Assembly: GCA_903832055.1 (NCBI GenBank)
Contig: CAILAC010000012.1
Span: 84,991 to 148,990, forward strand
Length of the DNA stretch: 64,000 nucleotides
Direction: 5' to 3'
DNA from: an uncultured Acidobacteriota bacterium
GTDB lineage: Bacteria > Acidobacteriota > Terriglobia > Terriglobales > Acidobacteriaceae
Under the pieces are notes generated by a model. That model worked only from the letters and a program-made list of their open reading frames with translations. It was not told the DNA's origin and searched no databases. Below, in pieces: positions 3,113 through 36,395 of this stretch. The translations under genes and the position numbers were made by a program. The first letter of the stretch is position 1, and each line of letters opens with the position of its first letter.

Positions 3113-3241
3113 AGGGGGTTCAATGACTCCGAAGTAGCTTTATCCGGGAGTTTAACAGGCTGCGCCGTGGCTTCGTCACCGGAATGCGGGTTGAGCAGAG
3201 ATTTCAGTTCTGCATTTGGGCTAAAGCCTTTACATTGAGAT

Positions 3242-15021: not shown

Positions 15022-15592
15022 CATCGGCCGACAACTGCTGGTTTTACTCGCAGCAGTTTGCATGACGATTTCGCTGGCTGGATGCGGAGGGGTGGCGCAC
15101 GCCAACCGAAATATCGCCTTTATGGGCGACTCGATCACAAACTTCTGGTGGCTTCCCGAGACAAATTATGGGGTGCCCGGTGATGTGACGAGCCAGATGC
15201 TCGCTCGTTTTCCATCCCAGGTGCTTGGTCATCACTACAAGGCCGTCGTAATCCTTGGCGGAACCAACGACATGCGTCACAAGACGCAGACGGTTCCGCA
15301 GGAGGTCGACCTGGCGATAAGCAACCTGCAGGCGATGGCCGCGATGGCCGAGAGCGAGAAGATGGTCGTCGTGCTGTGCACGATTCCGCCGATTCGCAAT
15401 TTGAATGAGCGCGTGGTTCCGCTGAATCAAGCGATTGAAGCCCTGGCTCAGGAGCACCATTACAAGCTGGTGGATTACTTCACGCCAATGGTCGGCCACC
15501 CGGAATACTTTCGGGATGGGCTGCACCCTTCCGATGAGGGCTATTTTGTCATGCAGCAGGCACTGGCAAAGGTGCTGCCGCTGGACTACTGA
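15005..15592 (+). CDS. SGNH/GDSL hydrolase lipoprotein
   Basis: SGNH blocks FMGDSIT, ILGGTNDM and DGLHPS. With TTG 15005 the N-terminus is MAWGCSIGRQLLVLLAAVCMTISLAGCGG, which has a lipobox LAGC. ATG 15062 would leave no signal peptide. The start is uncertain. Confidence 0.75.
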   Translation: MAWGCSIGRQLLVLLAAVCMTISLAGCGGVAHANRNIAFMGDSITNFWWLPETNYGVPGDVTSQMLARFPSQVLGHHYKAVVILGGTNDMRHKTQTVPQEVDLAISNLQAMAAMAESEKMVVVLCTIPPIRNLNERVVPLNQAIEALAQEHHYKLVDYFTPMVGHPEYFRDGLHPSDEGYFVMQQALAKVLPLDY

Positions 15593-15614
15593 GGCAGCAC
15601 CTTCGTTACGAAAG

Positions 15615-17930: not shown

Positions 17931-18767
17931 ATGTTCATTCGCCTGGGGTACGACCTTCAGTTTGATGTTCCCGCGCCGCTGACGTATGTGGCCCAGTTGC
18001 GGGTGCATTCTTCACGCGCAGCTGAGTTGCGCGAGCCGGATGTCGTTCATCTTGAAAGCACGCATGATGCGGGCACTGTGGCAATTGATTCGCATGAATA
18101 CATGGATGGATACGGAAACATCTGCACGCGGTTTGTTGCGCCTGCGGGTCACTTGAAGATCTGGGGATCGACGGTGATTGCCGATTCTGGCGAAGTGGAT
18201 GCAGTGGCCTGGGATGCGCAGGAGATTCCGACGGCAGAGTTGCCGGATGAAGTGCTGGTGTTTCTGCTGAACAGCCGCTACTGCGAGGTGGATTTGCTTT
18301 CGCCAATTGCCTATGAGCTGTTTGGCAACATTGCTCCGGGTTGGGGTCGGGTGCAGGCGATCTGCAACTGGGTTCATAACAAGGTGACCTTTAATTACGC
18401 TATGACGCGGCCGACGAAGACGGCGCTGGATGTGTTTACGGAGCGGGTGGGGGTGTGCCGGGATTTTCAGCATCTGGCGGTGGCCTTTTGCCGGTGCATG
18501 AACATACCGGCGCGGTATGCGGCTGGATACCTGGGCGATATCGGGGTGCCCCTGCGGTTGCCCATGGATTTCAGCGCGTGGTTTGAGGTGTATCTGGACC
18601 ACAAGTGGTGGGCCTTTGATGCGCGTAACAACATGCCTCGGCTGGGCCGGGTTTTGATGGCGACGGGTCGGGATGCGGCCGATGTGGCGTTTCTGACATC
18701 GTTTGGCAGCTCGACATTGACCAACTTCTACGTTGTGTCTGAAGTCGAGGAGCAGCCGGAGGCTTAA
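17931..18767 (+). CDS. transglutaminase-like cysteine protease family protein
   Basis: ATG 17931 (a GTG at 17925 is also possible). Bact_transglu_N-like N-terminus MFIRLGYDLQFDV. Catalytic-core pattern GVCRDFQHLAVAFCRCMNIPARYAAGY...WFEVYL..KWWAFDA. Confidence 0.85.
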   Translation: MFIRLGYDLQFDVPAPLTYVAQLRVHSSRAAELREPDVVHLESTHDAGTVAIDSHEYMDGYGNICTRFVAPAGHLKIWGSTVIADSGEVDAVAWDAQEIPTAELPDEVLVFLLNSRYCEVDLLSPIAYELFGNIAPGWGRVQAICNWVHNKVTFNYAMTRPTKTALDVFTERVGVCRDFQHLAVAFCRCMNIPARYAAGYLGDIGVPLRLPMDFSAWFEVYLDHKWWAFDARNNMPRLGRVLMATGRDAADVAFLTSFGSSTLTNFYVVSEVEEQPEA

Positions 18768-19015
18768 GGGGCTTCCGCGATTATTTTCTTTGCTGGAGGT
18801 TGCGCTAAGCAGCCTGATGAGCTTAATCTTGGGCCATGTCTCGATGTCGCTAGTGCCGGACTGGTACTTATGCCGAGGCGTTCTTGTGCCTGTCAATGGT
18901 CAGAGCTTCTGATACGATTGCACGGGGCAGGGGCTTAAGGCCCCGGTAAATTCCAGACAAACAGCGTGACTTTCGAAACGAATTTTATCTATTCAGGAAA
19001 GCTGAGGTGTGTGCA

Positions 19016-19987
19016 ATGGGTATTGCAGCAAGCGTGATTGAACTGATCGGCAAAACTCCGCTGGTCCGGCTGAACAAGATGACCGCCGGATTGCCCGGCG
19101 AAGTGGTAGCCAAGCTCGAGAGCCAGAACCCCATGAGCAGCGTCAAGGATCGTATTGGCCTGGCAATGATTGAAGCCGCAGAACGGGAAGGCAAGATCAA
19201 GGCTGGCGAAACGGTATTGATCGAGCCGACAAGCGGCAACACCGGCATTGGCCTCGCGTTTATCGCGGCGGTGAAGGGCTACCGGATCATCCTGACCATG
19301 CCGGAGACGATGAGCATGGAGCGCCGCATCGTGCTGCGCAGCTTTGGCGCGGAACTGGTGCTGACGCCGGGGCCCAACGGGATGAAAGGCGCGATTGCCA
19401 AGGCCAACGAGATTCTGGCGCAGACGCCGAATGGACACATCCTGGGGCAGTTTGATAATCCGGCCAACCCGGCAATCCACTATGCGACGACGGGGCCTGA
19501 AATCTGGGCCGACACCGAGGGCAAGGTGGATATTTTCATCTCTGCGGTGGGCACCGGCGGCACGCTGACCGGCACTGCCAGCTATCTGAAGGAGAAGAAC
19601 CCGGCGATCAAGATTGTCGCAGTGGAGCCGACCGACAGCCCGGTGCTGAGCGGGGGCAAGCCTGGGCCGCACAAGATCCAGGGGATCGGCGCAGGGTTTA
19701 TCCCGGCGATTTTGAAGACCGAGCTGATCGACGAGATCGTGCTGGTTTCAAATGATGAAGCGGTCGCAACAGCAAAGCGGATGCCGCTCGAAGAGGGCAT
19801 CTTTGTGGGTATTTCGTCGGGTGCAGCGGTGTTTGCAGCAATCAAGGTGGCAGCGCGCCCTGAGAATGCCGGCAAACGCATTGTGGTGATCATCCCCAGC
19901 TTTGGCGAGCGTTATCTGTCAAGCGTACTGTTTGAGGCCACGCGCGCCGAGATGGCGGCTCTGCCTACTTCGCCGGTAACACTGTAG
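19016..19987 (+). CDS. cysK: cysteine synthase A (O-acetylserine sulfhydrylase)
   Basis: Motifs [21 protein letters not shown] (PLP Lys), [20 protein letters not shown]. Confidence 0.93.
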
Positions 19988-23348: not shown

Positions 23349-23531
23349 ATGACAACTTCGAGCACGCACGACCAGGTAGAAGGCAAGGTTCACGAAATCA
23401 AGGGAGCGATCAAGGAGAAAGTCGGGGAAATCACGAAGAACCCTACGCTTCAAGATCAGGGAACGGCCGAACGAATCCAGGGAACGATTGAGAAGAAGAT
23501 TGGCGAAATCAAGCAGGTTCTCGAGAAATAG
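23349..23531 (+). CDS. CsbD family stress-response protein
   Basis: ATG 23349 follows GAGGAG with 7-nt spacing. Sequence: VEGKVHEIKGAIKEKVGEITKNPTLQDQGTAERIQGTIEKKIGEIK. Confidence 0.85.
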   Translation: MTTSSTHDQVEGKVHEIKGAIKEKVGEITKNPTLQDQGTAERIQGTIEKKIGEIKQVLEK

Positions 23532-23540
23532 AGGCCCGCT

Positions 23541-23594
23541 TAAAAAAATCAGGCCCTGGACGGAGAGCTACTCCGCCCAGGGCTTTTGAGTTTT
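23541..23594. terminator. bidirectional intrinsic terminator between convergent genes
   Basis: Hairpin GCCCTGGaCGGAGagctaCTCCGcCCAGGGC (23553-23583). It is followed by ttttgagtttt on the + strand and by tgattttttta on the - strand. Confidence 0.75.
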
Positions 23595-24957
23595 ATCTTC
23601 CTGCGGTGGATGGCGTGCCGCCTTCGGCAGGTTCCAGGTCGAGGCGGGCGCGTTCGCCATTGATGAGCACGACGCCGGCGTCGATCAACTGCTGGCCGGT
23701 GCAGTCGTAGGCCTCGTAGCGGCGCAGGGCTTCCATGGGAAAGAAGAATTCGACAGACAATGGCGCTGCCACGGGTACGCCGGGCTTTGCGCGTCCGCGT
23801 ACGGTGGTGCTGAAGCTGATGCCGTCAAAACCCTGATCGCCAGGAAAGTAGCCGAGAACGCGGCGAATGAGCGGCGAGATGTGTTCGTCAAATGCCAGGG
23901 CAGCCGCCTTGTAGCGGGAGATGCCCTGCGGTTCTGCGAGTGCCGTGGTCATCGACAGTTCGAGATACACCTGATGACGGAATGGAATGAAGGCAGGCGG
24001 CGCGTAGGTGACGAAGTGCGCTGCCGGCTCGAGTTCCTTGAGCATGTGATTGCTGACGCCTTGAATGGAGGTCTGCAAAACGGCGAGCGCCTGCGGCGAT
24101 GTGTCGCGCGCGGGCGGTGGGGTTGGTGCGGGAGCGACGGGCTGGGCTGTAGACGGCGTGACCGGGGCGGCGGCTACATACTGGGGCCGCGCTGCACTCT
24201 GCTCTGTGGCTGGCGGGACTTGAGTGGCAGGGACTTGAGCGGCTGGGGGGGGCGCGCTCGCGAGCACCGTCGGCGGGGCCTCAGGCTGGCCCGGCTGCTC
24301 TTCGTCGGTAAGCCAGAGGCTCAGCTGATTGGCATTGAGAAAGACTTCGGCGTCGACAATCGCGGCCTGCTCAGCGAGATTGCTCTGCGCGGACATCAGC
24401 CGTTTGGCGGCTGTCTGCGGAAAGTAGACCATCAGGTTTTCTGGCCGCTCGATGGGCATGCCCATGGTTTTGGAGACAACATGATGCGAAACTTCGATTG
24501 CGTATCCCTGCACCGCAGCGTTGTTTTGAAACGCCGGAACTGCAGCCTTGAGGATGGGCAGCACCACAGAGATAAAAGTCTCCTTGGCGCGCTGTTCGCT
24601 GGTGAATTTGTCGGAAGCATAGGCGCCGTAGTAATTGCCTGAGATGGCGAGGACGGTTGCGCCGTTGTAGCGCTCGAAGCGAATCGAGTGCTGGTCTGAG
24701 CGCTTCTGCGCCCTCTCATCGATATCGAGCTTGCGGCTGAAGTAGAACGGGAAGTTGAAGTGATGTGCGGCGATGTTTTGGCCGATCACGTTCAAATCGT
24801 TCATCGAGCGCTGCTGCAATGCGCGAATCTCAGAGTCTTGAATCTCAACTGGAGAAACGACCTGTGCGATAGCAATGGGCGTTGCAAAGCCCATAAGAAT
24901 GATGCCCCAGAATACGAAGCCAGGAATAACTGCCCAGGCAGCCCTACTTATGCGCAT
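23593..24957 (-). CDS. hypothetical secreted two-domain protein with a Pro-rich linker (last gene of the cytochrome operon)
   Basis: Signal or anchor sequence MRISRAAWAVIPGFVFWGIILMGFATPIAIAQ. A central Pro/Ala/Gln-rich linker of about 80 aa. No motif I recognise. The start overlaps the upstream stop by 14 nt. Confidence 0.7.
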   Translation of the reverse strand: MRISRAAWAVIPGFVFWGIILMGFATPIAIAQVVSPVEIQDSEIRALQQRSMNDLNVIGQNIAAHHFNFPFYFSRKLDIDERAQKRSDQHSIRFERYNGATVLAISGNYYGAYASDKFTSEQRAKETFISVVLPILKAAVPAFQNNAAVQGYAIEVSHHVVSKTMGMPIERPENLMVYFPQTAAKRLMSAQSNLAEQAAIVDAEVFLNANQLSLWLTDEEQPGQPEAPPTVLASAPPPAAQVPATQVPPATEQSAARPQYVAAAPVTPSTAQPVAPAPTPPPARDTSPQALAVLQTSIQGVSNHMLKELEPAAHFVTYAPPAFIPFRHQVYLELSMTTALAEPQGISRYKAAALAFDEHISPLIRRVLGYFPGDQGFDGISFSTTVRGRAKPGVPVAAPLSVEFFFPMEALRRYEAYDCTGQQLIDAGVVLINGERARLDLEPAEGGTPSTAGR

Positions 24958-25696
24958 AAACCGTCCCTGCTGGCTGATACGGAGGATCAGCTAAAGCCCG
25001 AGTATAGGCGATGAGCGCCCGCACCTCCGCGAGGCTGAGAGTTTTTTCGTAGGGTGGCATCAATGCGGATCGCTTCAGCGCGGGGCCGCCGTACTGGATG
25101 ATTGCCGTTAGATCCGCGTCACTCATCTTGTTGAGAGTATTGCCGTCGGTGAAAGCGTGCGGCTTGGTTTCGAGGTTGTCGTAGTTGGAGACGCGCTCAG
25201 CGGATGACTCTGGATCGTGGCACCGGGTGCAGTACTTATCCGCGAGAATTGCGCCGAGACGCTGCTGATAGCCGAGAGCCGTCTCGATGACATCGAGCGA
25301 AGCCGGCTTTGCCTTGCCCGGTGTGACCGCGGTGAGCTGGTAGCGCCCGGCGATGCCGCCCAGGGTGACGGCGGTGGTGGCCTGGCCACTGGTGTCAGTA
25401 AGGGCCGCGGCAGGTTCAAAGCTGACGCCTGCGGGGCCTTGAAACTGGACCAGCGCTCCGGGAACGGCAGTGCCCTGCTCGTCATTGACCTGAACGACGA
25501 CCGGGTCTTTGAGCGCTGTGCCAGTGGCGCCGACCTGATGTCCACCACTTGTCTCGACGATGGCGGCTCCGGTGCCGGTGGGTTTGAGAGCTGCGTTGGG
25601 TTGGGTGCCTGACTTACATCCAGCAAGCGCGACGACGGCGAGGAGCGCCAGGCAAGCGGATGATCGCAAGACCTCAGTGTTGACTCGTTTCATCAT
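24944..25696 (-). CDS. lipoprotein with an Ig-like domain and a C-terminal class-I monohaem cytochrome c
   Basis: Lipobox LALAGC. Big-like segment DPVVVQVNDEQGTAVPGALVQF...TDTSGQATTAVTLG. One CXXCH (CTRCH) with a distal MPPY Met. ATGATGA overlap with the upstream gene. Confidence 0.85.
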   Translation of the reverse strand: MMKRVNTEVLRSSACLALLAVVALAGCKSGTQPNAALKPTGTGAAIVETSGGHQVGATGTALKDPVVVQVNDEQGTAVPGALVQFQGPAGVSFEPAAALTDTSGQATTAVTLGGIAGRYQLTAVTPGKAKPASLDVIETALGYQQRLGAILADKYCTRCHDPESSAERVSNYDNLETKPHAFTDGNTLNKMSDADLTAIIQYGGPALKRSALMPPYEKTLSLAEVRALIAYTRALADPPYQPAGTVYAHK

Positions 25697-27759
25697 TGCT
25701 TTGCTCCTTTTCCGCTTGTGCCTTTAAGCGACATGAGGAAGGCCGTCAATGCGCGGGCATCTTCGTCACTCATCTTCTGGTTGGGCTCTGCTGTGCCGGG
25801 GCGCAGCGCTTGCGGATTCTTGAGCCAGGCGTAGGTCCAGGCCGGAGTCAGACGTGAGCCGACCTGCGTCAGGGTGGGTCCGATGTAGCCCTTGTCAGTT
25901 TTGGTATCGACGATGTGGCAGGACTGGCATGCGAATTTGGAGTAGAAGAGTTGCCGCCCTTGCTCCACCACCTGTGGAGGATTGGTGGCTGACGGCGCGG
26001 TGTCGGGGTCGACGGCGGATGTCTGATAGACGGCGAGCATGAAATCCGTAAGTTCCTTGTTGTCGCTGTCAGAGAGGTTGAAGCGGGGCATGCGCCGGAT
26101 GAGCGATGGCCGCAGGGTATTGGGATTCTTGAGGAAATCGGTCAGCCACTGACGCTGAACGCTGCTGCCCTCGTAGGTCAGGTCAGGGGCCATGTCGCCG
26201 CCTCTGCCGTTGATCCGGTGGCAACTGAAGCAGGCGAGCTCGGTCATGAGCTTGCCGGCGTGGCCAGCGGGCTGGTAGTTGGTGTCTTCTGCAGCAGCGA
26301 CGCGCAGCGTGTCAGGAATTGTGCGGCTGCGGCCGGTCTGTGCGAGCAGGGCCGTAGTCAATGCATCGGTCTGCGCATTGGAAAGCGCGAACTGCGGCAT
26401 CTTCACCGCGCCACCGAAGGCACGCGGCTGGCGAATCTTGCTCACGATGTAAGTTGAAACCGTATGCTCCATGCCGGGTAGGAATGCGATCTGCGCAAGC
26501 GGCTTGCTGCCGATGGTGCTGAGATCGGGCGCGAAGTTCTGCGGTGTCTGCACGCCGTTGATCTCGTGGCAGGCGGCGCATCCGCCGTCGATGATAAGTC
26601 GGCGGCCACGGGCAATCTGCTGCGGTGTGGCCGCGGCAAGCTGCACGTTTGCGCCGTAATCTGCATCCGTCTTGCTGTGCAGATAGTCCGCCAGTGTGGC
26701 AATCTGCCGGGGCGTAAATCGGTAGTGCGGCATGGGCGTTGTGGCGTCGTAAATGCGCGGATTATTCAGCCACGCATTGAGCCATTCCGGCTTGACCTTG
26801 TTGCCGATGCGCGTCAGCTCAGGGCCAACGTCGCCACCGACAACATTGCCCGCCGCATTTTGAACTGCGTGGCAGGATGAGCAGAAGGATTGTCCATAAA
26901 GGCTCGCGCCATCAGCAGGATTGGTCGCCGACCCTGCCGAAGCATTCTTGACGCTTGCCGCTGAAGTATCGCCGGGCTGCGGTTTGCTTGAGCTGATAAG
27001 GTAAGCGGAAATATCGCTCGCGTCCTGATCGGTGAGCTTGTAGTTAGGCATCGTGGCAGTAGCCGCGTATGCCTGCGGGTCTTTGAGCCAGCTGTAGATC
27101 CACTCGCGTGTGGTCTTGTCGGCGACATGAACGAGTGACGGCGGATGATCGGTCGGCATCATCTTTGTGCCGTCGGGCCGCGTAACAGCGTGACATCGAA
27201 CGCAGCCGTAGCGCGCCAGCATCGTGCGGCCAAGATTCAACTGCGGAGTGCCGGCCATTGCGTTCTGATGGCATTGACCGCAACCTGCTTCAATATAGCG
27301 CGTGGGCAGGATGGGCGCTTCGCCATCGCGTTCGCTGTGGTGCGCCTCGGAGACGGTGGTGGCTGCCCCCTGACCGCCATGACAGATTACGCAGCCAAAT
27401 CCATCCACCGAATGTGGAATCGCCGGGTGCTTGCGAAATGGCTGCTGATGTTCGTCTGCCAGGCTGGCTTCGCTCAAGCCAAGATGACACGTAGTGCAGC
27501 GATCGACGACGCCCAGCTCGGGCATCCATATCTGGTGGATACCAGGCTCGAAGCGACGGCGCATGGAGACCGCGTCGCCGCGATCGCGAATCAACGATAG
27601 ATACTTGCGCTGATAGCTATGCCACTGGCTGAAGTGCTCCTTGGTGGGTGTGACAGCAAGCGCAAGCAGCAGAACAAGGCTGACAACGCCAAAGGCCCGC
27701 ACCGGATCGCCGAAGAGCGCTTGCCACGCAGAGGAAATGTATTTTCGTATGGATTGCAC
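25693..27759 (-). CDS. membrane-anchored octahaem c-type cytochrome
   Basis: Eight CXXCH motifs: CTTCH, CVICH, CGQCH, CVRCH, CSSCH, CAACH, CFSCH, CQSCH. N-terminal TM helix AFGVVSLVLLLALAV. GTG start at 27759 directly abuts the upstream TAA. Confidence 0.9.
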   Translation of the reverse strand: MQSIRKYISSAWQALFGDPVRAFGVVSLVLLLALAVTPTKEHFSQWHSYQRKYLSLIRDRGDAVSMRRRFEPGIHQIWMPELGVVDRCTTCHLGLSEASLADEHQQPFRKHPAIPHSVDGFGCVICHGGQGAATTVSEAHHSERDGEAPILPTRYIEAGCGQCHQNAMAGTPQLNLGRTMLARYGCVRCHAVTRPDGTKMMPTDHPPSLVHVADKTTREWIYSWLKDPQAYAATATMPNYKLTDQDASDISAYLISSSKPQPGDTSAASVKNASAGSATNPADGASLYGQSFCSSCHAVQNAAGNVVGGDVGPELTRIGNKVKPEWLNAWLNNPRIYDATTPMPHYRFTPRQIATLADYLHSKTDADYGANVQLAAATPQQIARGRRLIIDGGCAACHEINGVQTPQNFAPDLSTIGSKPLAQIAFLPGMEHTVSTYIVSKIRQPRAFGGAVKMPQFALSNAQTDALTTALLAQTGRSRTIPDTLRVAAAEDTNYQPAGHAGKLMTELACFSCHRINGRGGDMAPDLTYEGSSVQRQWLTDFLKNPNTLRPSLIRRMPRFNLSDSDNKELTDFMLAVYQTSAVDPDTAPSATNPPQVVEQGRQLFYSKFACQSCHIVDTKTDKGYIGPTLTQVGSRLTPAWTYAWLKNPQALRPGTAEPNQKMSDEDARALTAFLMSLKGTSGKGAKQ

Positions 27760-28464
27760 TTAACTCCTCCAGGGCAAAACCCAGGACCAGCCGGGGCCGC
27801 GAAACCATGTACCCACAGCAGTGAGCACAATCAATTCAAAGAGAAACCACGTCATGATCCAGTAGGCAAATGGCTTCGAAGCAAGGTAGCGACGCCACCG
27901 CGAAGGTGACTCCAGCGTGCTGTTGGCGCCGATGAACATCGCGATAGCAACAATCACCGTTGGCGCAACCGCAACATAGACATCGAAGAACACTAGAAAC
28001 GCAAGCAATCCAGCTGTTGCAACGTAAAAGATATTCAGGCGCTTTGTGCGGTCTTTTAGAAACAGGCCCTGCGCCTCAATGTTGATGTTGAAGTATGGAA
28101 TGACGATCAACGAGACGATGAGCATCGTCGGCACGAGCACCCCCGCGACAACGGGCGGGAAGTAATGCAGCAGCTCTTGCAGGCCGAGGAAATACCACGG
28201 TGCCTTGGCGGGGTTGGGCGTATGCGTCGGGTCAGCTATGCCTTCGAGAGGTGCATTGAAGAACAGCGAGATGACAACCAGCAGAATCGCCAGCAGCTCA
28301 ATCGCAAGTGCTGCGCGAAAGAGCACGCCGGGATAAGTCTGCATCTGCTCTTCGCGAGCCACCTTGACCTGCGCACTGGTGCGGCGCGTGACAAAGACGA
28401 CTCGTGTCGGAGAGCGCCGCTGGTCTGAGTCAAGACCAGCGATGAAATCTTTTGGAGTGCTCAT
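27760..28464 (-). CDS. cytochrome b C-terminal part (b6f subunit-IV-like, extended)
   Basis: [20 protein letters not shown] aligns with the PEWYF Qo-site segment of subunit IV / cytochrome b. About 5 hydrophobic helices. ATGA overlap with the cytochrome b6-like gene. Confidence 0.85.
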
Positions 28465-29249
28465 TTCGTCTCCTTCGCCGGGAGTGGTGGTGCGGCGGCA
28501 GCCTGTGCCCTGGGCTCAGACTGCTGCACATACAGCCCGCCATCTTTGCGAATACGCCAGAAGTGAATGGCGATGAAAACAATCGCGGTCAGTGGCAGTA
28601 CGACACAGTGCAGTACATAGAAGCGGAGCAATGCGTTTGCGTTAACCTGATTGCCGCCCAGTAACAGGAAGTGAATCTTGCTGCCGACAATCGGCACTGC
28701 GGATGAAATATTCGAGCCAACTGTAATAGCCCAGAATGCCAGCTGGTCCCACGGAAGCAGATAGCCGGTGTAGCTGAGCAATAAAGTAATCAGCAGCAGC
28801 ACAATGCCGATGACCCAGTTGAATTCGCGCGGTGTGCGATAGGCGCCGCGATAGAAGACCTTGAACATGTGCGCAAAGACGAGAAAGACCATCAGCTGCG
28901 CCGACCAGCGATGCAGGTTTCTCAGAAAAAGTCCTGACGAAACAACAAACTGCAGGTCCTTCATGTCGGCGTATGCCTGCGGCACTGAAGGGTGGTAATA
29001 CAGCATGAGCAGAATGCCGGTGACCACGAGGATAAGAAATGTGCCCAGCGTGAGTGTGCCGAGATACCAGGTTGAACTGAAGCTCACCATGCGCTTGCGC
29101 ACTTTGGTTGAGAAGAGGTGAAGGAATACATTCTGCTGAATCGCAAGCGCGCGATGCAGAGTGCTGTTGCCGCTGCCGCTGCGAAAGACTGAGCGCCACA
29201 CGCGGCTGCCGCGAACTTGTTCAATGATTTGATCGGTCTTCGTGGTCAT
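28461..29249 (-). CDS. cytochrome b N-terminal part (b6-type)
   Basis: Haem ligand pairs H-x13-H ([18 protein letters not shown]) and H-x14-H ([25 protein letters not shown]). ATG 29249 lies 2 nt after the Rieske stop; the ORF-track start 29255 is a TTG overlapping it. Confidence 0.9.
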
Positions 29250-29251
29250 GC

Positions 29252-29743
29252 TCAAACCCTCAAGTACTGCAGCGCGGGGACGTTGATGGAGCGATCGACC
29301 ATGAGATTGCCCTCATCGCTGACCCAGACCTTGAGCCATGGCAAGGGCTTGGGCGCGGGGCCTTCAATCTTCTCGCCGGTGCGCTTGAACTTGCTGCCGT
29401 GACAGGGACAGGTGATCATGCCGAGGTCCTGATTCCATGTGGTCAGGCAACCGAGATGGGTGCATATCGCGCCAATTGCGAAGAAGCCCTCTTCTGCGCG
29501 AATGGTGTAGATTCCGGCGTTCACGTCCATGCTCACCAGGCCCACGGGAAAGCTCTCGGGTCTGCCTGCATTGACGATTGACGACGGCTCGTAGAGCACA
29601 TTGGGTGAGAGATAGTTGTATGAGAAAACAGCTGTGCCGGCAGCAGCGATGCCCAGCGATCCCAACCCTACCTTGGTGAAGAACGCTCTTCGGTCGAAGC
29701 TATCGGCCGAGGGTGTCGTTCCTATCTGTTTCAACTCGTGCAT
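29252..29743 (-). CDS. Rieske [2Fe-2S] protein with a twin-arginine signal/anchor
   Basis: Tat motif [20 protein letters not shown]. Cluster boxes CTHLGC and CPCHGS. Confidence 0.93.
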
Positions 29744-29746
29744 GCG

Positions 29747-31729
29747 TTACCTCGCGATCGCGCCGGCTGCGAGCGGTTTCGCGCGCAGAGGGCCGTCGAT
29801 AGATTCAAGAGAAATTAAGCCGGTGGGATCCACTGAAAAAATGTTGTAAGACTCCATCGTGATGGTGCCCGCTGGACAACGCGCTGCGCAGAGGCCGCAG
29901 CGAATGCAACGAGACTCATCCTTGAGCATCGCGGAGCCGGTGATGACACCTAGTTCGTCTGCCTGAATGTCATCCAATTCGACACCGAGCAGGTCGCGTA
30001 CATTGCCTAACTGCGTGGTTGTTTCTTCATCAAATGAAATGCGTTCGAGCGATACGAGTTCGAGGCAGCTCTCGGGGCATACGTCAACGCAGCCACCGCA
30101 GAGAATGCACTCGGTTGCATCTTCTGAATTGCCCTCAAAGACAGTGTTGACCCAGCAGTGGAGGCAGCGTTGCGCCTCTGCCATTGCAGACTCAGCATCG
30201 AATCCAATCTCCACTTCAGTCACGCCGGTGCGGCGCTTGAGTGGCTGCATTGGGATGGCTGGGCGTGTCTTGTCGAGCAAGTCGAGGGGCATGTGATAAC
30301 GCTCCATGACTTCGACTTCGATAACTGGATCGGGGTGTTTGGTGCCGCGCAGATACTCATCAATCCCGACGGCTGCGCGCTTGCCATCAGCCACGCTGTC
30401 GATGATGAGTCGCGGGCCAAAGACGCAGTCGCCACCAGCGAAGACTCCAGGTGCTGAAGTCATCAACGTCTGCGGATTCACAGCGACCAATCCGCGCGGG
30501 GAAACTCCAACTCCGTCTTCAGGAGTCAGGAAAGTTAGATTCGCTGCCTGACCGATGGCCATGATGATGGTGTCGCATTCGAGCAGGGTTTCGCTGTTCT
30601 CAAAGAAGGTCGGATTGAAGCGCCGGTTCTCATCGAAAACTGATTTGGTCTTGAGCACTTCGAGCCCGATGGCGTGCCCGTCTTTACCGACAATCTGCTT
30701 GGGACCAAAGCCGGCATGGATGATGATGCCTTCTTCGACTGCCTCATCAATCTCTTCGAGTGATGCGGGCATTTCAGCGCGATTTTCGAGGCAGACAAGG
30801 TGTACTTCCTGGGCACCGAGTCGCAGCGCAGAGAGCGAAACGTCCATCATTTCGCGCGCTGCGACAGCATCCACGCTGTCCTGCGTTGGTTCAAAGTTTT
30901 CGACTCCCGCTGCATGCTGCTTGAGCACTTCGCGAGCTGCTGAGCGGGCCACATCCATGGCGACATTGCCGCCGCCGATGACCAGTACCTTCTTGCCGAT
31001 GGTGAAGCGATAACCCAGATTCACGTTGAGCAGGAAGTCTATGCCCTTGTAAACACCATCGAGATTGACGCCAGGGATGGTGAGGTCGCGGCTGCGATGC
31101 GCGCCAACTGCAATGAGCACTGCATCGAATTTGCTGCGCAGATCGGCGATGGTAAAGTCGCGTCCGGCAGCACTGTTAAGTTTCAGCGTGATGTCGCCGG
31201 TGGCAAGGATTTCGCGGACCTGCGCCTCGACAACATCGCGAGGCAGGCGATACTCAGGCAGGCCCAGATAGAGCATGCCGCCTGCGACTTGTGAAGCCTC
31301 AAACAGAGTGACGGAGTAGCCCATCAGGCCCAGATCATGCGCTGCGGAAAGTCCTACCGGGCCTGCTCCAACAATGGCCACGCTGAGATTGAGTTTGGGT
31401 TGCAGACGGCCGGCGTTTACGTCAATTGGATTGCGCGACTCAGGGCCATGCTGCTCAGTGAGGAATCGCTTGAGTGCGCGGATGGCGATAGGCTTGTCAA
31501 TCTCACCGCGACGGCACGCAGTTTCGCAGGGATGTGCGCAGACGCGGCCGCAGATGCTGGCGAGCGGATTTGGTTCGCGCGCATAGCGATATGCGTCTTC
31601 GAAGTTACCCTCGGCGATCAGTTCTACATAGCGGCCCGCGTTGGTATGTGCGGGACAGGCCGTCATGCAGGGAAAGTTGGTGTTCAACCATTCCTGATCA
31701 ACCTTCTTGTTGATAAAGCGTTGCTGCAT
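29747..31729 (-). CDS. GltD-like NAD(P)H-dependent FAD/FeS oxidoreductase fused to a 2x[4Fe-4S] ferredoxin domain
   Basis: N-terminal Cys clusters (CMTACPAH..., CGRVCAHPCETACRRG). FAD fold VAIVGAGPVGLSAAHDL. NAD(P)H fold VLVIGGGNVAMDVARSA. C-terminal CILCGGCVDVCP and CIRCGLCAARCP. No signal peptide. The stop lies 3 nt before the Rieske ATG. Confidence 0.88.
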   Translation of the reverse strand: MQQRFINKKVDQEWLNTNFPCMTACPAHTNAGRYVELIAEGNFEDAYRYAREPNPLASICGRVCAHPCETACRRGEIDKPIAIRALKRFLTEQHGPESRNPIDVNAGRLQPKLNLSVAIVGAGPVGLSAAHDLGLMGYSVTLFEASQVAGGMLYLGLPEYRLPRDVVEAQVREILATGDITLKLNSAAGRDFTIADLRSKFDAVLIAVGAHRSRDLTIPGVNLDGVYKGIDFLLNVNLGYRFTIGKKVLVIGGGNVAMDVARSAAREVLKQHAAGVENFEPTQDSVDAVAAREMMDVSLSALRLGAQEVHLVCLENRAEMPASLEEIDEAVEEGIIIHAGFGPKQIVGKDGHAIGLEVLKTKSVFDENRRFNPTFFENSETLLECDTIIMAIGQAANLTFLTPEDGVGVSPRGLVAVNPQTLMTSAPGVFAGGDCVFGPRLIIDSVADGKRAAVGIDEYLRGTKHPDPVIEVEVMERYHMPLDLLDKTRPAIPMQPLKRRTGVTEVEIGFDAESAMAEAQRCLHCWVNTVFEGNSEDATECILCGGCVDVCPESCLELVSLERISFDEETTTQLGNVRDLLGVELDDIQADELGVITGSAMLKDESRCIRCGLCAARCPAGTITMESYNIFSVDPTGLISLESIDGPLRAKPLAAGAIAR

Positions 31730-31811
31730 GGGTGACCATCCGCGTCTGGGGAAGTGGGAGAAGGGGGAAGCGGGCGTGACTTCACGCCCGTTGAGTTACT
31801 TTTGAAGCGAC

Positions 31812-32393
31812 TTACTTTGAAAGCGTGAAGTCTGATGCAGTGTCGCCTGCAACCTTTACAGGATTCGACTTGGTCTTTGCACCCTCATGCCATGCGGTGA
31901 CGGTGTATGCGCCATCAGGAACGTTGTCGATCTTGTAGGCACCCGACTTATCAGTCTCAGCAAAGTAAGGCGTGGGCGAAACGATGATGTAAGCGGCCAT
32001 CTCAGGATGTACATTGCAGAGCAATGGCACAGCACCGGGGTTATCGAACTTGAAGCTCTGCTTCTGCCCCTGAGGCCATGTGCCGAGGTTGTGGCCAAGC
32101 TTCTTGTTACCGCTGATCGAAATCCAGAAGACGTTGTGCGCTACGCTGTCGCTGTTGAGGAATTCGACGGTCGTGCCTTGCTCAATGGCCACAAGGTGAG
32201 GCGTGAACATCAGGCCTTTTTGATCGATGACGATGTGCTGGGTGGGGGCGGGAAATGTCTTGCCGGGGATAGCTTCGACATAGACGACGGAGACGCCTGA
32301 GACGCCTGATACCTTGCCGTGGATGGTCCCTGCAACCGCTGCTGTGCTGAGTGCGGTAATCGCGATAAGTGTTGCCAGTGTGATGCGTTTCAT
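31812..32393 (-). CDS. secreted cupredoxin (amicyanin/plastocyanin-like) with a C-terminal CarboxypepD_reg-like beta-sandwich
   Basis: Signal peptide MKRITLATLIAITALSTAAVA. Candidate type-1 Cu ligands are His in SVAHNVFW and C-x2-H-x2-M in LLCNVHPEM. The tail YFAETDKSGAYKIDNVPDGAYTVTAWHEG is typical of CarboxypepD_reg-like folds. Confidence 0.8.
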   Translation of the reverse strand: MKRITLATLIAITALSTAAVAGTIHGKVSGVSGVSVVYVEAIPGKTFPAPTQHIVIDQKGLMFTPHLVAIEQGTTVEFLNSDSVAHNVFWISISGNKKLGHNLGTWPQGQKQSFKFDNPGAVPLLCNVHPEMAAYIIVSPTPYFAETDKSGAYKIDNVPDGAYTVTAWHEGAKTKSNPVKVAGDTASDFTLSK

Positions 32394-32433
32394 ATCTGCT
32401 CCTGAGTGGGAAAGTGAATGCCGTTAAAGTTTG

Positions 32434-34017
32434 CTAGTAGACGAACTCCAGCCCGGTGACGAGTACGTTTGTTCGGAAGGGATTGCCAATAGCTGCACCC
32501 GTGGATGGGTTGTAGACAATCTGCTGGGGCTGAATCTGGTACTCAACCGACGCCTTGATGTTGGCGTGGATGAGGAACTGCTCGCCGAGCGTGAAGCGAT
32601 TGCGCGTTGCCCGGTATGGCGAGAAGAAGGAAGACGACGGTGGAGCCGTTGGGTCGTACATAAGGAAGTTGACCCGATCAGCAGTTGACTTGACCTGATC
32701 CCAGCGCACGATGCTCATGGCCCAGGGCAGCGCAAGATAGTCAGCCTCAAGGAAACTGCCGCTGAATGTAACTGCAGCCTCAGGCTTGAAGCCGGTGATG
32801 GCACCACTTTCGACAGTGGATTCAGGCACAAGGTTGTGATCGTGGGCTGCCATGTACACACCAAACAAATTGAATGTTCGGTAGTTAAAGTTGACGTCGC
32901 CGCCGATGCGGTAGAACGGCTCACGCGCGGTGAGAACGACTGGGGTCACACCGTCGGCCAGGACACCAGACACAGTCTGTACGCTGCGACCGTAGAAGCC
33001 AAAGGTTCCTAGCGCCAGGAAGGTGTGATCACGCGGACCGGAAGCACCAGCAGCCTGAACGCCGTTGCGGCTTTCCGGATTTTTTTCAAGGTTGAAGCGA
33101 TAAATGAATCGGCCGTAGATGTCTTTGTAGTTGGAGTCGGAACTGAATGCGACTCCATTACCCGGCTTGACCGTGGGCGCTGTAGGAGCTGCACCGCTGG
33201 TGTTTTGATTCATGACCGCGAGAGAGTAGTGGTAGCCCTGGTAGGAGTGCCCTCCGCTGATTTCAAGCCCGTGTGCAGCACTCGAAATCGACGCCCCGTT
33301 GTTGACAAATTCAGGCCGTCCAATGCCATTCTGGACGCCGATATTCGCCTCGCCGAAGAGGTCCCAACCGCTGAGGTTCCAGGAGCGTGCCTGACTGAAC
33401 GGGATATCCAGTTCAAACTGACCAAAGCGCAAGTTCACTGAGTCTGTGGGCATTTTGAGGAATCGGCTGACGTCGTGAAATTTGAGGTACGCATCGCCCA
33501 ACGCGCCGTTGGCATTCGCACCGGCGACGCTGATGTCGTCGTCAACCCAGAAGGAGATACCGGTTCCGAAATTGCCCGCCGTAAAGATACTGAAAAGTCC
33601 TGGTTGAAAGTCAGATTTGGGGACAAATGTACCAATAGTTCCGGCAGGCAGAACCTGGTTGAAGTTGTTCCGGCTGGAGCCAACCTGCTGGTAGAACTGG
33701 TTGTAGCGCAAGCCAATCGGCGGCAGGCCGGGAATGGTGCCGGGATATACCGTGTGCGGAAATAACTCGGCCTGTGCCGGTGCTCCAAGGAGAATTGGCG
33801 GAGCCTTGAGAAAGGACTCGTCATCCTTGGGAAACTTGAAGCCTGCATCCTTGAATGCCTTGCCGAAGTCATTGAGCTTTGGGAAGTCCAGGTGGCAGGT
33901 GGTGCAGGATGTACCGTACTGACGGGAAAACGCGGGAATCGCTCGACTCGTTTGCGGAAGCAAAAGAACCGTCAGTGCAGCGACAAAAAGGATTCGGGAA
34001 AGCCATTTTCGATTCAT
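32434..34017 (-). CDS. outer-membrane beta-barrel-like protein with one N-terminal CXXCH (fused cytochrome-porin architecture, Cyc2-like)
   Basis: ATG 34017 (MNRKWLSRILFVAALTVLLLPQTSRA signal peptide). CTTCH lies 11 residues into the mature protein (IPAFSRQYGTSCTTCHLDFPKLNDFGKAFK). About 480 aa of alternating amphipathic strands, rich in Gly/Tyr/Phe/Asn, follow. The C-terminus ...VTGLEFVY ends in an aromatic residue, as in OMPs. Confidence 0.8.
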   Translation of the reverse strand: MNRKWLSRILFVAALTVLLLPQTSRAIPAFSRQYGTSCTTCHLDFPKLNDFGKAFKDAGFKFPKDDESFLKAPPILLGAPAQAELFPHTVYPGTIPGLPPIGLRYNQFYQQVGSSRNNFNQVLPAGTIGTFVPKSDFQPGLFSIFTAGNFGTGISFWVDDDISVAGANANGALGDAYLKFHDVSRFLKMPTDSVNLRFGQFELDIPFSQARSWNLSGWDLFGEANIGVQNGIGRPEFVNNGASISSAAHGLEISGGHSYQGYHYSLAVMNQNTSGAAPTAPTVKPGNGVAFSSDSNYKDIYGRFIYRFNLEKNPESRNGVQAAGASGPRDHTFLALGTFGFYGRSVQTVSGVLADGVTPVVLTAREPFYRIGGDVNFNYRTFNLFGVYMAAHDHNLVPESTVESGAITGFKPEAAVTFSGSFLEADYLALPWAMSIVRWDQVKSTADRVNFLMYDPTAPPSSSFFSPYRATRNRFTLGEQFLIHANIKASVEYQIQPQQIVYNPSTGAAIGNPFRTNVLVTGLEFVY

Positions 34018-34432
34018 AAAGACGCCTCGGAGACTCGGTCGGGGATTCAAATCCAAGCTTTCAATCGTTTGTGTTCCTATTGTGGAGGGGAATCCGCTTC
34101 AGCGAATGTGACGACCATCACGCGAGATGGCGGTTCTGACATGGGACGCGATTGCACAGAGGGGCAATTGCCAAGCCCTTGTTCACGCTGCAAACGTAGG
34201 TTGCAAGGTCAGAAGTTGATGTTCAAAAGAGCTCTCACTTGCCCGCACGGGGCAGGATTCATAGAGGCACGGGAGCCTGAACCTCGATGGGCAGGCACCT
34301 GGTTCTCCCTGGGAATTGTCGGTTTTCGGCGCGCTATGCCGCAGCCAGTGTCGTTGAGCGGAACGAACCGGCGCATTTGATGGGTACGCGGCTGGTTTGT
34401 TGGATCGGGCCTGGCTCAAGCCATTGAGGGGC

Positions 34433-34762
34433 TTAATCCTTCATCTGTACCAGTAGCATGCGCACTGCGGTCTTTGCCGAGATTCCGTGCGACAGCATCG
34501 GTGGCATGTAGACAAAGGAGCCGGGTTGAGCTTCGACAATATCCGCCCCCAGCTGCACCTGGGCCAGCCCCTCGATAAAGTAGAGAACTGCCGGCGTAGG
34601 GGCCGAATGTGCTGACAGCTCCTCGCCGGCCGCGAAGCCAAACAGGGTAATGTTCACCTTCTGATCCTTGTGCAACACGCGGCTGAGAATGCCCTTCTCG
34701 GGAAGGGTGAACTCCTGTTGCAGATTTGCAAAATAGGCATAATCCATTTGCTTCTCTCTCAT
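34433..34762 (-). CDS. cupin domain protein
   Basis: Cupin_2-like pattern GEELSAHSAPTPAVLYFIEGLAQVQLG....PGSFVYMPPMLSHGI. ATG 34747 is an alternative start. Confidence 0.7.
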   Translation of the reverse strand: MREKQMDYAYFANLQQEFTLPEKGILSRVLHKDQKVNITLFGFAAGEELSAHSAPTPAVLYFIEGLAQVQLGADIVEAQPGSFVYMPPMLSHGISAKTAVRMLLVQMKD

Positions 34763-35396: not shown

Positions 35397-36395
35397 ATGG
35401 TCGCATGTGTTCAGCGCGGTTGTGTTTTCATTGAGGGAATGCAGCGACAACCGACAATGAGGGGGTTCGCAGGCCGGGTGGCAGCTCCAGCTGCCGTGCT
35501 GGCGCTCAGCCTGCTCTGGGCGCTCAGCGGTGTGCGCGGCGAACTGCTGCCCGGCCCGACCCCTCTCTCGGTGGCGCAACTTGAGAGGCAGGCGCTGCCG
35601 CTTTTGCTGTTTGCCGCCATCGCTGCCCTGGCCGCCCTGCTCAGGCGGGAGCAATGGCCGCGCAGGCACCAGCTCTGGAATGCAATCACGCTTGGAGCAG
35701 GGCTCTTTCTGGTGCCGGCAATGCTCATCTACTTATCTGAGGCAACTGTTTCTGCTTACACGCGCACGGTGCTTTTGATCCTGGTTCCGGTCTTCGCCGT
35801 GGTCGTGAACCCCCATGCAGGAAGCTCACAGGCTGGCGAAGTTCGCTACGGGCTGGCTGCTTCTCTGGCGGCTGTGGTCGGCGCGCTTTGCGTCTTCCCG
35901 GTTCGCTTCCCCGGCTCGTTTCCAGAAATTGCAGGTTTCTGCGCGGTCATAGTTGCCGCAGCCTGTATTGCCGCCGCCAATTGCCGCGCCAACGCTTTGG
36001 CGCTGCCTGGCTCCGCCTCATGGGCAGCCACGGCAGCCGTTGCCGCCGCAACCGCTGCATCGGGGCTGTTGGCCGCGAGCGCCTGCCTTGAGAAAACCCT
36101 CTGGCGCTGGAACCTTCCTGCCGGTGAATGGCTGTGGTCCGTCGCGCTGGAGTTGCCCGCGCTGCTGCTGTTGTTCTGGCTGCTTCGCCGTCTCCCCGCG
36201 CCTCGAATGGCGACGCGCTACAGCTTTGCGCCGCTGCTTGCCGTGCTCATCGGCATGGCCGCCCTGCGCCCGGCGCTTGATTCAATCCAGCCTCGCACCT
36301 GGCTGGGCCTCATCCTCATGGCCACCGCCGCATCCTGGCTGCTTCTTGCCCCTGAGAGCGAAGTCTGCTCGCCCTCTTCCGCACTCGGCTTGTAG
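35397..36395 (+). CDS. polytopic membrane protein (possibly DMT/EamA-like)
   Basis: About 10 hydrophobic segments and a very Ala/Leu-rich composition. The start is uncertain (ATG 35397, 35439 or 35457). No diagnostic motif was recognised. Confidence 0.5.
   Translation: MVACVQRGCVFIEGMQRQPTMRGFAGRVAAPAAVLALSLLWALSGVRGELLPGPTPLSVAQLERQALPLLLFAAIAALAALLRREQWPRRHQLWNAITLGAGLFLVPAMLIYLSEATVSAYTRTVLLILVPVFAVVVNPHAGSSQAGEVRYGLAASLAAVVGALCVFPVRFPGSFPEIAGFCAVIVAAACIAAANCRANALALPGSASWAATAAVAAATAASGLLAASACLEKTLWRWNLPAGEWLWSVALELPALLLLFWLLRRLPAPRMATRYSFAPLLAVLIGMAALRPALDSIQPRTWLGLILMATAASWLLLAPESEVCSPSSALGL

Follow-up and report, generated by a model that had tools for sequence, protein, structure and literature searches.

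The 64-kb stretch of DNA analyzed here (referred to as the window; all coordinates below are window positions) comes from an uncultured member of the Acidobacteriaceae. It contains an operon of nine minus-strand genes, numbered g1 to g9 in the order of transcription, in which the genes for a predicted Cyc2-type cytochrome-porin and a cupredoxin are joined to those for a flavoprotein, a Rieske/cytochrome b complex, further c-type cytochromes, and a protein without a family. The genes, and the hairpin at which the operon ends, are as follows:

32434-34017, minus strand: g1, a predicted fused monoheme cytochrome-porin of the Cyc2 superfamily, 527 amino acids (aa) long, with the signature AIPAFSRQYGTS-CTTCH-LDF-PKL (from motif, profile search, and structural model)
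31812-32393, minus strand: g2, a predicted secreted type-1 cupredoxin with a C-terminal CarboxypepD_reg-like beta-sandwich (Pfam Copper-bind and CarboxypepD_reg)
29747-31729, minus strand: g3, a predicted cytoplasmic NfnB/GltD-like NAD(P)H flavoprotein with Fer4_20 (two [4Fe-4S] clusters), Pyr_redox_2 (flavin adenine dinucleotide [FAD] and NAD(P)), and two further C-terminal [4Fe-4S] clusters
29252-29743, minus strand: g4, a Rieske [2Fe-2S] protein (Pfam Rieske), exported by twin-arginine translocation (Tat) as judged from its RRAFF motif
28461-29255, minus strand: g5, a cytochrome b6-type subunit with a TTG start (from matches to b6 in the PDB and heme histidines)
27760-28464, minus strand: g6, a subunit-IV-like membrane protein (Pfam Cytochrom_B_C, the C-terminal domain)
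25693-27759, minus strand: g7, a membrane-anchored octaheme cytochrome c (eight CXXCH, an N-terminal anchor, and Pfam matches)
24944-25696, minus strand: g8, a lipoprotein (lipobox LAGC) with an immunoglobulin (Ig)-like domain and one class-I heme c domain (one CXXCH)
23593-24957, minus strand: g9, a secreted or membrane-anchored protein without a family, with two alpha/beta domains and a Pro/Ala-rich linker
23553-23583, minus strand: terminator hairpin at the end of the operon, 13 bp with 10 G-C pairs, followed by T7

Both the six-frame list of open reading frames (ORFs) and a direct parse of the sequence place the nine genes between 34017 and 23593, with junctions of 40, 82, 3, -4 (or +2), -4, 0, -4, and -14 nucleotides (nt) from g1 to g9; the g4-g5 junction is -4 with the TTG start of g5 and +2 with an ATG two codons further in. 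Independent gene callers predict the same nine genes on two public metagenome contigs that encode identical proteins. The 415-nt leader upstream of g1 contains no credible gene and reaches to a small cupin gene (34433-34762, minus strand), and the terminator hairpin sits between the stop codon of g9 and that of a convergent CsbD-like gene of 60 aa (23349-23531, plus strand). A previous interpretation made from the letters of this DNA, here called the sequence-only reading, had proposed a nine-gene operon with this spacing, leader, and terminator, and the ORF list and our own parse bear this out, as do Pfam and NCBIfam profile searches and a motif parse for its part-by-part domain calls for g1 to g9. 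It had also described the terminator as bidirectional. The hairpin is there, but the symmetry is not: the operon side has T7, whereas only a T4 run lies beyond the hairpin on the side of the CsbD-like gene. A terminator that acts in both directions, but asymmetrically, is plausible.

Proteins of the Cyc2 family consist of a monoheme cytochrome fused to a 16-strand porin, with the motif AXPXFAR[Q/K][T/Y] before the CXXCH and PXL after it (Keffer et al. 2021; PMC8406198). Although g1 matched no Pfam or NCBIfam family, it resembles these proteins in its signal peptide (a hydrophobic segment at residues 9-27), its single N-terminal CXXCH (CTTCH at residue 38), its upstream motif, its downstream PKL, and its predicted 16-strand barrel. 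All 80 orthologs likewise have one CXXCH. The upstream motif of g1, AIPAFSRQY, stands 3 aa (GTS) before the CXXCH and agrees with the consensus at eight of nine positions; the remaining position has Ser in place of the consensus Ala, and this Ser is invariant within the g1 clade. PKL follows four residues past the CXXCH, in agreement with PXL, and FPKL is invariant in the orthologs. With 527 aa, of which ~430 aa make up the predicted barrel, g1 lies above the length threshold of the family (>=365 aa) and is longer than a typical Cluster 1 Cyc2. The AlphaFold2 model has 16 strands at low confidence (predicted local distance difference test [pLDDT] score, 58; predicted template modeling [pTM] score, 0.59), and the best Foldseek matches to it are the 16-strand general porins OmpU, Omp-Pst1, OmpF, and PorB (E values of ~1e-11 to 1e-9).

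A profile built from the relatives of g1 gave 2979 matches among 1.84 billion representative proteins. Dozens of the 150 best matches listed are full-length proteins of 425-578 aa, most of them with the exact sequence AIPAFARKY-3 aa-CXXCH-...PKL, and the matches having the exact canonical motif were retrieved with E values of 1e-33 to 1e-143. The g1 ortholog of the 'Ca. Acidiferrum' clade, represented by P0242, also has AIPAFARKY, and its operon likewise consists of nine genes. Because the profile of g1 relatives retrieves full-length proteins with the exact canonical motif, g1 is, as far as its sequence tells, a member of the Cyc2 superfamily. A strict screen with PXFAR[QK][TY] would discard g1, owing to the Ser, and motif-based Cyc2 surveys could undercount this variant, which fails the screen behind the published tree (PMC8406198). 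According to the same study, the Cyc2 motif varies between clusters and the function of divergent clades is uncertain, while the proteins that have been biochemically tested (Cyc2 of Acidithiobacillus ferrooxidans, Cyt572 of Leptospirillum, and Cyc2PV-1 of Mariprofundus) are all Fe(II) oxidases. A similarity network that puts acidobacterial proteins beside Leptospirillum Cyt572 (PMC10654088) gives a lead, and only a lead, for the placement of g1.

The g2 product is predicted to be a copper-binding type-1 protein. It matches Pfam Copper-bind with 30.6 bits (cut-off, 21.2), and its ligand loop, CNVHPEM (C-x2-H-x2-M), is of the short amicyanin type and kept in 77 of 78 orthologs. Together with a candidate copper-ligand His upstream, in VAHNVFW, this provides the His/Cys/His/Met set of type-1 sites. 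At E<=0.01 the only NCBIfam models that match are those for amicyanin (the best), plastocyanin, pseudoazurin, and an anammox S-layer protein, all far under their cut-offs, and no rusticyanin model is among them. Rusticyanin, to which the cupredoxin had previously been compared, is therefore not a suitable counterpart, since g2 has the short amicyanin loop and no rusticyanin match. The C-terminal CarboxypepD_reg sandwich of g2 is of the same domain type as that heading the TonB-dependent receptor of the window (59169-63194). It may allow docking to outer-membrane barrels.

The six genes that follow encode the flavoprotein, the Rieske/b subunits, and two cytochromes. The flavoprotein g3 has no signal peptide and ends 3 nt upstream of the Rieske gene g4. 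It reaches 457 bits against NCBIfam NF009410 (cut-off, 516), and its two best relatives in the PDB are a molybdopterin oxidoreductase and a formate dehydrogenase subunit, each with a GltD-like region, followed by NfnA, dihydropyrimidine dehydrogenase subunit A, NfnI, and GltD. For g4, the best PDB matches are two Rieske proteins of Kuenenia stuttgartiensis, 9rk4 (1.5e-24) and 9rk3 (5.9e-19). Its box II, CPCHGSKF, has the potential-raising second-sphere Ser and a Phe at the Tyr position; the pair is conserved in the orthologs, and Kustd1480, with an identical Ser/Phe pair, was measured at +335 mV (PMC12954380). Cytochrome b6 chains are the best PDB matches of g5 (2.6e-46), which scores 259 bits against the ExtP model (cut-off, 290). 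Five histidines of g5 (H46, H115, H129, H216, and H231) are each present in 51 of 51 orthologs; they comprise the four canonical heme histidines and an extra one, His46, located in an N-terminal extension. No Cys able to bind heme ci is present in g5. A crude hydropathy scan, from which the helix number is approximate, gives 4-5 hydrophobic segments for g6, versus three in canonical subunit IV. The hemes of g7 are arranged as four closely spaced sites followed by four class-I domains, and eight CXXCH are present in 47 of 48 orthologs; a search of the PDB by sequence found no solved relative. The single CXXCH of g8 is kept in 48 of 48 orthologs. Its Ig-like domain was called from a sub-threshold Big_1 match and is absent from the 161-163 aa g8 orthologs of the Acidoferrales version of the operon ('Ca. 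Acidiferrum'; L084-L088), so it is probably an addition specific to the Acidobacteriaceae lineage.

Genes g3 to g7 correspond to a type of complex described for anammox bacteria. The Kuenenia complexes Kustd1480-85 and Kuste4569-73 contain a Rieske protein, a four-helix, b6-like cytochrome b, a five-helix subunit IV, and a hexa- or octaheme cytochrome c that replaces cytochrome f, together with a cytoplasmic NAD(P) oxidoreductase and its iron-sulfur (FeS) chain, and an extra heme b is predicted at His43/His62 (PMC12954380). They are proposed to bifurcate electrons from quinol, so that one reduces a high-potential acceptor while the second is driven uphill onto NAD(P)+; the partner of Kustd1480-85 is unknown (PMC12954380). 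The genes here match this list in a b6 with a separate, enlarged subunit IV, a related Rieske protein with the Ser, an octaheme cytochrome c, and an FAD/FeS oxidoreductase. His46 of g5 lies near His43/His62, a likeness by position only. The two systems also differ. The Kuenenia complexes belong to another phylum and to the anammox lifestyle, whereas the window comes from an organotrophic soil acidobacterium without an anammoxosome. The g3-g9 block has no subunit like hydroxylamine oxidoreductase, and has g8, an extra lipoprotein cytochrome, and g9. Unlike in Kuenenia, the high-potential side is joined here, in its gene context, to a cupredoxin and a Cyc2-type protein.

The last gene, g9, matches no Pfam or NCBIfam family, and its ~1977 homologs are all unnamed. 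Both domains were confidently modeled by AlphaFold2 (pLDDT, 74), and the model has no fold match in the PDB at E<=0.001. A relationship to sex-pheromone lipoproteins was considered and rejected, as the best structural matches reach only an E value of ~0.01 and were treated as noise. Since g9 accompanies g1 and g2 even where g3 to g8 are absent, it belongs functionally to a g1-g2-g9 core module.

This was found by comparison of gene neighborhoods, which the sequence-only reading had proposed. A scan for relatives of g1, with one genome per GTDB species, returned 530 stretches, and the loci of the best 80 were analyzed. All 80 are from metagenome-assembled genomes (MAGs) of Terriglobia from peat, bog, palsa, and soil, among them Terracidiphilus, Granulicella, Silvibacterium, and further Acidobacteriaceae; none is from a cultured isolate. 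Loci 77% identical to that of the window belong to Terracidiphilus and Acidobacteriaceae MAGs. In 55 of the 80 loci the nine genes, or as many of them as the contig holds, are colinear (type A), and because the same order recurs in 55 other species-level genomes, it is more than chance. A further 19 loci lack g3 to g8 and keep g1, g2, and g9 (type B), except that L013 also lacks g2. In 15 of these 19, a gene for a diheme class-I cytochrome c of 301-341 aa lies between g2 and g9 (e.g., L040 12198-13103), and in L013, L038, and L045 nothing lies between.

In a neighbor-joining tree of g1, the type B loci form one clade of 12, and the other seven are scattered among type A. Because type B is thus polyphyletic, the middle cassette must have undergone repeated exchange or loss. 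Within the g1-g2-g9 module, the Rieske/b-flavoprotein-cytochrome block is an inner-membrane partner that may or may not be present, and the insertion of g3 to g8 inside that module argues for type A as one functional system rather than a chance adjacency. The next clade out consists of 'Ca. Acidiferrum' (= Acidoferrum, Acidoferrales) and one MAG labeled Ca. Eisenbacteria. Its nine-gene order is identical, the operon identity is 27-62% overall and 40-44% for g1, and the g1 motif is that of canonical Cyc2. In the Ca. Eisenbacteria-labeled MAG (GCA_035607085.1; L087/L088), g1 is 67% identical to P0242, and the presence of the operon there is due either to an error of binning or taxonomy or to transfer between phyla. 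In some genomes the operon has, at a distance of a few kb, a gene for a transposase or a phage-type integrase as a neighbor (L040 8127-9302, L084 21432-21485, and L087 4076-4849), which hints at lateral mobility of the module. Near the type B locus L057, a monoheme cytochrome c (16340-16789) stands among three small ORFs without a family. Its identification as cytochrome 579 was rejected, since the match to the Leptospirillum model was too weak (34 bits versus a cut-off of 280).

The elements that may control the operon are the following:

34108-34121, no strand assigned: GTGA-N6-TCAC palindrome (GTGATGGTCGTCAC on the minus strand), a candidate CRP/FNR-family operator centered ~98 nt before the ATG of g1
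34079-34084, minus strand: possible -10 hexamer CACAAT, read from the sequence
31769-31792, minus strand: stable G+C-rich hairpin directly past the g2 stop codon, in the 82-nt gap between g2 and g3 (structure scan)

The palindrome is the sole copy of GTGA-N6-TCAC in the window. In 77 of 83 loci a site of this form stands no more than 350 nt before g1; by our estimate, chance alone would account for ~0.3 loci. The classical FNR box, TTGA-N6-TCAA, is found in 0 of the 83 upstream regions. The palindrome is present two or three times in some Terracidiphilus-type loci, with spacings of 26 and 42 nt. Although no CRP/FNR-type regulator of this kind is encoded in the window, two divergent genes for such regulators lie upstream of the operon in 'Ca. 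Acidiferrum' (L085/L086, 8034-9800), homologs flank it in L071 (8941-9615) and L075 (8494-9162), and in four more loci one is found within ~5 kb. The adjacent regulators have an N-terminal C-x2-C-x8-C, a fourth Cys, and a recognition helix with SRETVxR. We take the cysteine set to be FNR-like and the helix to be CRP-like, the latter fitting the GTGA half-site. A promoter scan found no canonical sigma-70 promoter on the operon strand. If the operator were a class II site centered at -41.5, CACAAT would take the -10 position, with the transcription start near 34073.

In the type B locus L057, the same palindrome (2831, 15903, and 19374) precedes three genes for tandem universal stress proteins (Usp; 2831-3781, 14814-15842, and 18420-19310), near which a P-type ATPase and a Pat-like acetyltransferase are also encoded. 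We infer from these sites a regulon of the hypoxia or stress type, responding to oxygen or energy limitation, that would include the Cyc2-like operon.

The hairpin past g2 is kept in position, with unrelated sequence, in 40 of the 40 type A loci listed and in most type B loci (L004-L083), and some orthologs add a T-run. It is a candidate attenuator, partial terminator, or 3' stabilizer that probably attenuates transcription or stabilizes the g1-g2 message, and would thereby set the ratio of g1-g2 to the genes downstream. Because this conserved hairpin follows g2 and, with its T-run in some orthologs, suggests attenuation or processing, the proposal of one transcription unit needs to be qualified.

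Several known systems share parts of this composition. In the rus and petI systems of A. ferrooxidans, electrons pass from an outer-membrane monoheme cytochrome to a cupredoxin and c-type cytochromes, and on to an oxidase or through a Rieske/b complex toward NAD(P), and a gene for an NAD(P)-type dehydrogenase (sdrA) lies beside the bc genes of petI. The difference is that the outer-membrane parts and the Rieske/b parts are encoded at a single locus here, that the cupredoxin is not rusticyanin, and that a b6/subunit IV pair with an octaheme cytochrome and an NfnB/GltD-like flavoprotein take the place of the bc1 complex with cytochrome c1 and of the short-chain dehydrogenase. Oxidase genes such as coxBACD of rus are absent from the nine genes, the flanks, and the whole window. 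Operons of Nitrospina gracilis and 'Ca. Methylomirabilis oxyfera' encode a split b6 and subunit IV, a Rieske protein, and an atypical octaheme cytochrome c; the portion of the account consulted mentions no gene for a Cyc2-type protein, a cupredoxin, or a flavoprotein, and the likeness is one of description only (PMC3578206). MtrCAB, PioAB/MtoAB, and the acidobacterial extracellular electron transfer (EET) clusters EET1 and EET2 (2026 peat preprint) are also outer-membrane conduits, and syntenic clusters of them occur in peat Acidobacteriota. Conduits of the MtrCAB type have 26-strand porins that sheathe deca- or multiheme cytochromes and can reach solids, whereas the outer-membrane part here is a small fused monoheme porin for soluble species and the multiheme protein is anchored in the inner membrane. 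The preprint describes other porin-multiheme clusters and does not mention a Rieske protein or a cupredoxin. For the same reason, g1 being a small fused monoheme porin, an MtrAB-like conduit was rejected.

The analogies to the A. ferrooxidans and anammox parts drawn previously are thus sound, with g1 in the Cyc2 superfamily and g3 to g7 matching the anammox architecture. None of the Cyc2 gene contexts that we found described has a Rieske/b complex in the operon, as that of g1 does, and a search of the full-text literature, with subscription journals outside its coverage, found no published description of a cluster of Cyc2-type, cupredoxin, and Rieske/b genes. The earlier claim of novelty holds as far as the literature was searched: the Rieske/b-flavoprotein-octaheme module is of a kind already known, here outside the anammox bacteria, whereas its join with the Cyc2-type gene, the cupredoxin gene, and g9 is undescribed in the literature found. 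Each part comes from a known family, and what appears to be new is this conserved join, the modularity of the cassette, and the regulatory elements.

Regarding the architecture, we consider it quite likely that g1 exchanges electrons through its pore, that g2 forms a bridge or shuttle to g8 and g7, that g7 takes the place of cytochrome f/c1 in the g4-g6 complex, and that g3 is cytoplasmic. In such an arrangement, g1 would exchange single electrons at the outer membrane with soluble redox species that enter the pore, most likely iron, and g2, probably docked via its beta-sandwich, would connect it to the heme c of g8 and the octaheme g7. The flavoprotein g3 would sit on the cytoplasmic face of the g4-g6 Rieske/b6 complex, as in Kustd1480-85 and Kuste4569-73, and g9 may be an accessory periplasmic factor for the g1-g2 module. 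Expression would be governed by a CRP/FNR-family regulator with an FNR-like Cys cluster acting at GTGA-N6-TCAC, and would probably be switched on under oxygen limitation, with the hairpin past g2 setting the balance between g1-g2 and the remaining genes. The sequence-only reading had proposed an outer-membrane redox site wired to the quinone pool and to NAD(P)(H). This is the natural reading of the operon, and the deep synteny and the fact that g9 travels with g1 and g2 strengthen it.

As the best explanation of the operon as a whole, we tentatively propose an envelope electron conduit, induced at low oxygen, that links NAD(P)H and menaquinone to soluble iron, with the outward direction favored. 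The sequences show the gene content, the cofactor motifs, the synteny, the modularity, the operator, and its linkage to regulators, from which the physical assembly, the substrate, the direction, and the regulation are inferred. Electrons from NAD(P)H would enter via the FAD, the FeS chain, and the b hemes, and those from menaquinol at the Qo site. They would then pass via the Rieske cluster, the c hemes, and the copper to the Cyc2-type protein, which would hand them to dissolved or complexed Fe(III) at acidic pH, and a Q-cycle would conserve energy. From NAD(P)H to the b hemes and menaquinone, and from there via the Rieske cluster, at ~+300 mV, onward to acidic Fe(III), all the steps would run downhill. 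The preference for outward Fe(III) reduction over Fe(II) oxidation is slight, and our confidence in it is limited. It derives in part from two features of the operon, namely, that a site for an NAD(P)H donor and an exit site are encoded and no terminal oxidase is, and that control of the FNR type suits an alternative electron sink. Acidobacterium capsulatum and Acidicapsa spp. reduce Fe(III) under micro-aerobic conditions, and a reversed bc1-c4-rusticyanin-Cyc2 chain has been put forward as an Fe(III) reductase in A. ferrooxidans (PMC8790237). 'Ca. Acidoferrum' is a proposed acidophilic Fe(III) reducer and was named for that potential (PMC7980381).

A number of points weigh against this proposal. 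All the tested Cyc2 proteins are Fe(II) oxidases, and a reduction of Fe(III) by Cyc2 has only been proposed; moreover, the model of g1 is of low confidence and the protein has Ser for the consensus Ala. Control by low oxygen would equally suit a microaerophilic Fe(II) oxidizer. The type B loci, which do not encode a quinol-oxidizing module themselves, are similar to the "downhill" rus operon. The anammox flavoprotein has been proposed as an electron output, through bifurcation to NAD(P)+, and not as an input (PMC12954380). Among the best 80 relatives the carriers are all MAGs, so that none of them ties the operon to the isolates that reduce Fe(III), and the hairpin past g2 may uncouple g1-g2 from g3-g9.

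The sequence-only reading had favored Fe(II) oxidation with reverse electron flow, or else the opposite direction. The conduit that it supposed agrees with our results, whereas the Fe(II) direction is no better supported than the outward one, given the Fe(III)-reducing Acidobacteriaceae and the control of the FNR type. Such a module for Fe(II) oxidation is a possible, if rather doubtful, explanation. The pore of g1 would oxidize Fe(II), and electrons would pass via the cupredoxin to the hemes of g8 and g7. From there they would go downhill to an oxidase encoded elsewhere, as in type B, or back through the Rieske/b6 complex to menaquinone and, via g3, to NAD(P)+, a route powered by the proton-motive force or coupled by bifurcation or confurcation. 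Fe(II) oxidation is the sole activity demonstrated for the Cyc2 family (PMC8406198), type B mirrors the electron carriers of rus while type A mirrors petI with sdrA, and the high-potential Ser of the Rieske protein is that of the Kuenenia complexes, for which NAD(P)H production has been proposed. In acidic peat and bog, the habitats concerned, Fe(II) comes into contact with oxygen, and FNR-type control suits microaerophily. However, no oxidase is encoded in the operon or the window, g2 has the short amicyanin-type loop without a rusticyanin match, and the Fe(III)/Fe(II) couple at pH 4 may exceed the normal potential of a cupredoxin. It is mainly autotrophs that need reverse flow to NAD(P)H. 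To our knowledge, the Terriglobia are organoheterotrophs, and we know of no isolate among them that oxidizes Fe(II), whereas isolates that reduce Fe(III) are known (PMC8790237, PMC7980381).

It is also conceivable, although we regard it as unlikely, that all nine proteins are assembled into a single envelope-spanning supercomplex whose Rieske/b6 part performs electron bifurcation from quinol. One electron would travel via the octaheme cytochrome, the copper, and the Cyc2-type protein to a high-potential extracellular sink, Fe(III) at acidic pH, and the second would be driven uphill via the b hemes, including the extra heme at His46, and the FeS clusters to NAD(P)+; in reverse, electrons from Fe(II) and NAD(P)H would be merged into the menaquinone pool. 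If this were true, it would be the first case of the hypothetical NAD(P)H-generating Rieske/b mechanism outside the anammox bacteria, with its missing high-potential partner identified, and would show how abundant soil Acidobacteria can cycle iron.

The same wiring might serve a partner other than iron, such as Mn(II)/Mn(III), copper, or the soluble humic or quinone-type shuttles that are abundant in peat, which we consider improbable. Cyc2 homologs are candidate components of Mn(II) oxidation in 'Ca. Manganitrophus', studies of peat argue for organic matter over metal oxides as the main extracellular acceptor in ombrotrophic bogs, and it is acknowledged that what divergent Cyc2 clades do is uncertain (PMC8406198). 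On the other hand, the Cyc2 family has been shown to act on Fe(II) alone, a small 16-strand pore favors small ions over humics, and the lineages concerned are linked to iron cycling (PMC8790237, PMC7980381).

Equally improbable is that two systems are merely adjacent, with g3 to g8 a general complex III for aerobic respiration and g1-g2, with or without g9, a separate envelope module whose transcript ends at the hairpin. The conserved hairpin, with its T-run in some orthologs, would fit this, as would the 19 loci that have g1-g2-g9 without g3-g8 and the stand-alone operons with Rieske/b6 and octaheme genes reported, in the portion of the source consulted, for Nitrospina, Kuenenia, and Methylomirabilis (PMC3578206). 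Yet g3 to g8 lie between g2 and g9 in all 55 type A loci and in 'Ca. Acidiferrum', the conserved operator stands only upstream of g1 and neither a recurrent site nor a promoter-like element is found before g3, and most g2-g3 gaps measure 60-100 nt. Close relatives would not be expected to do without a housekeeping complex III, as the polyphyly of type B shows them to do without this block, and on the grounds of synteny and dispensability that reading was largely rejected.

The proposed conduit between NAD(P)H or menaquinone and soluble iron would give many uncultured soil and peat Acidobacteria a plausible means of cycling iron where the soil is acidic. In acidic soils and peat, Terriglobia rank among the most abundant bacteria, and some reduce Fe(III); we found no molecular route described for this reduction, and the operon offers one. 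Its relatives occur in at least 530 species-level genomes and among thousands of metagenome proteins. The operon also places an anammox-type Rieske/b-NAD(P) oxidoreductase in another phylum, with a plausible high-potential partner (the cupredoxin and the Cyc2-type protein) encoded alongside, and so provides a second system for testing the proposed quinol-bifurcation route to NAD(P)H. The exchange of the cassette between g2 and g9, which consists of the six Rieske/b genes, a diheme cytochrome c gene, or nothing, is a natural comparative experiment.

In the remainder of the window, two sizeable ORFs have no Pfam family, one at 35397-36395 (plus strand; 332 aa, apparently a membrane protein) and the other at 56671-58446 (minus strand; 591 aa). 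The other genes are ordinary chromosomal housekeeping genes, including those for UvrD, ThrRS, BipA, an amino-acid permease, adenosine deaminases, and the TonB-dependent receptor.

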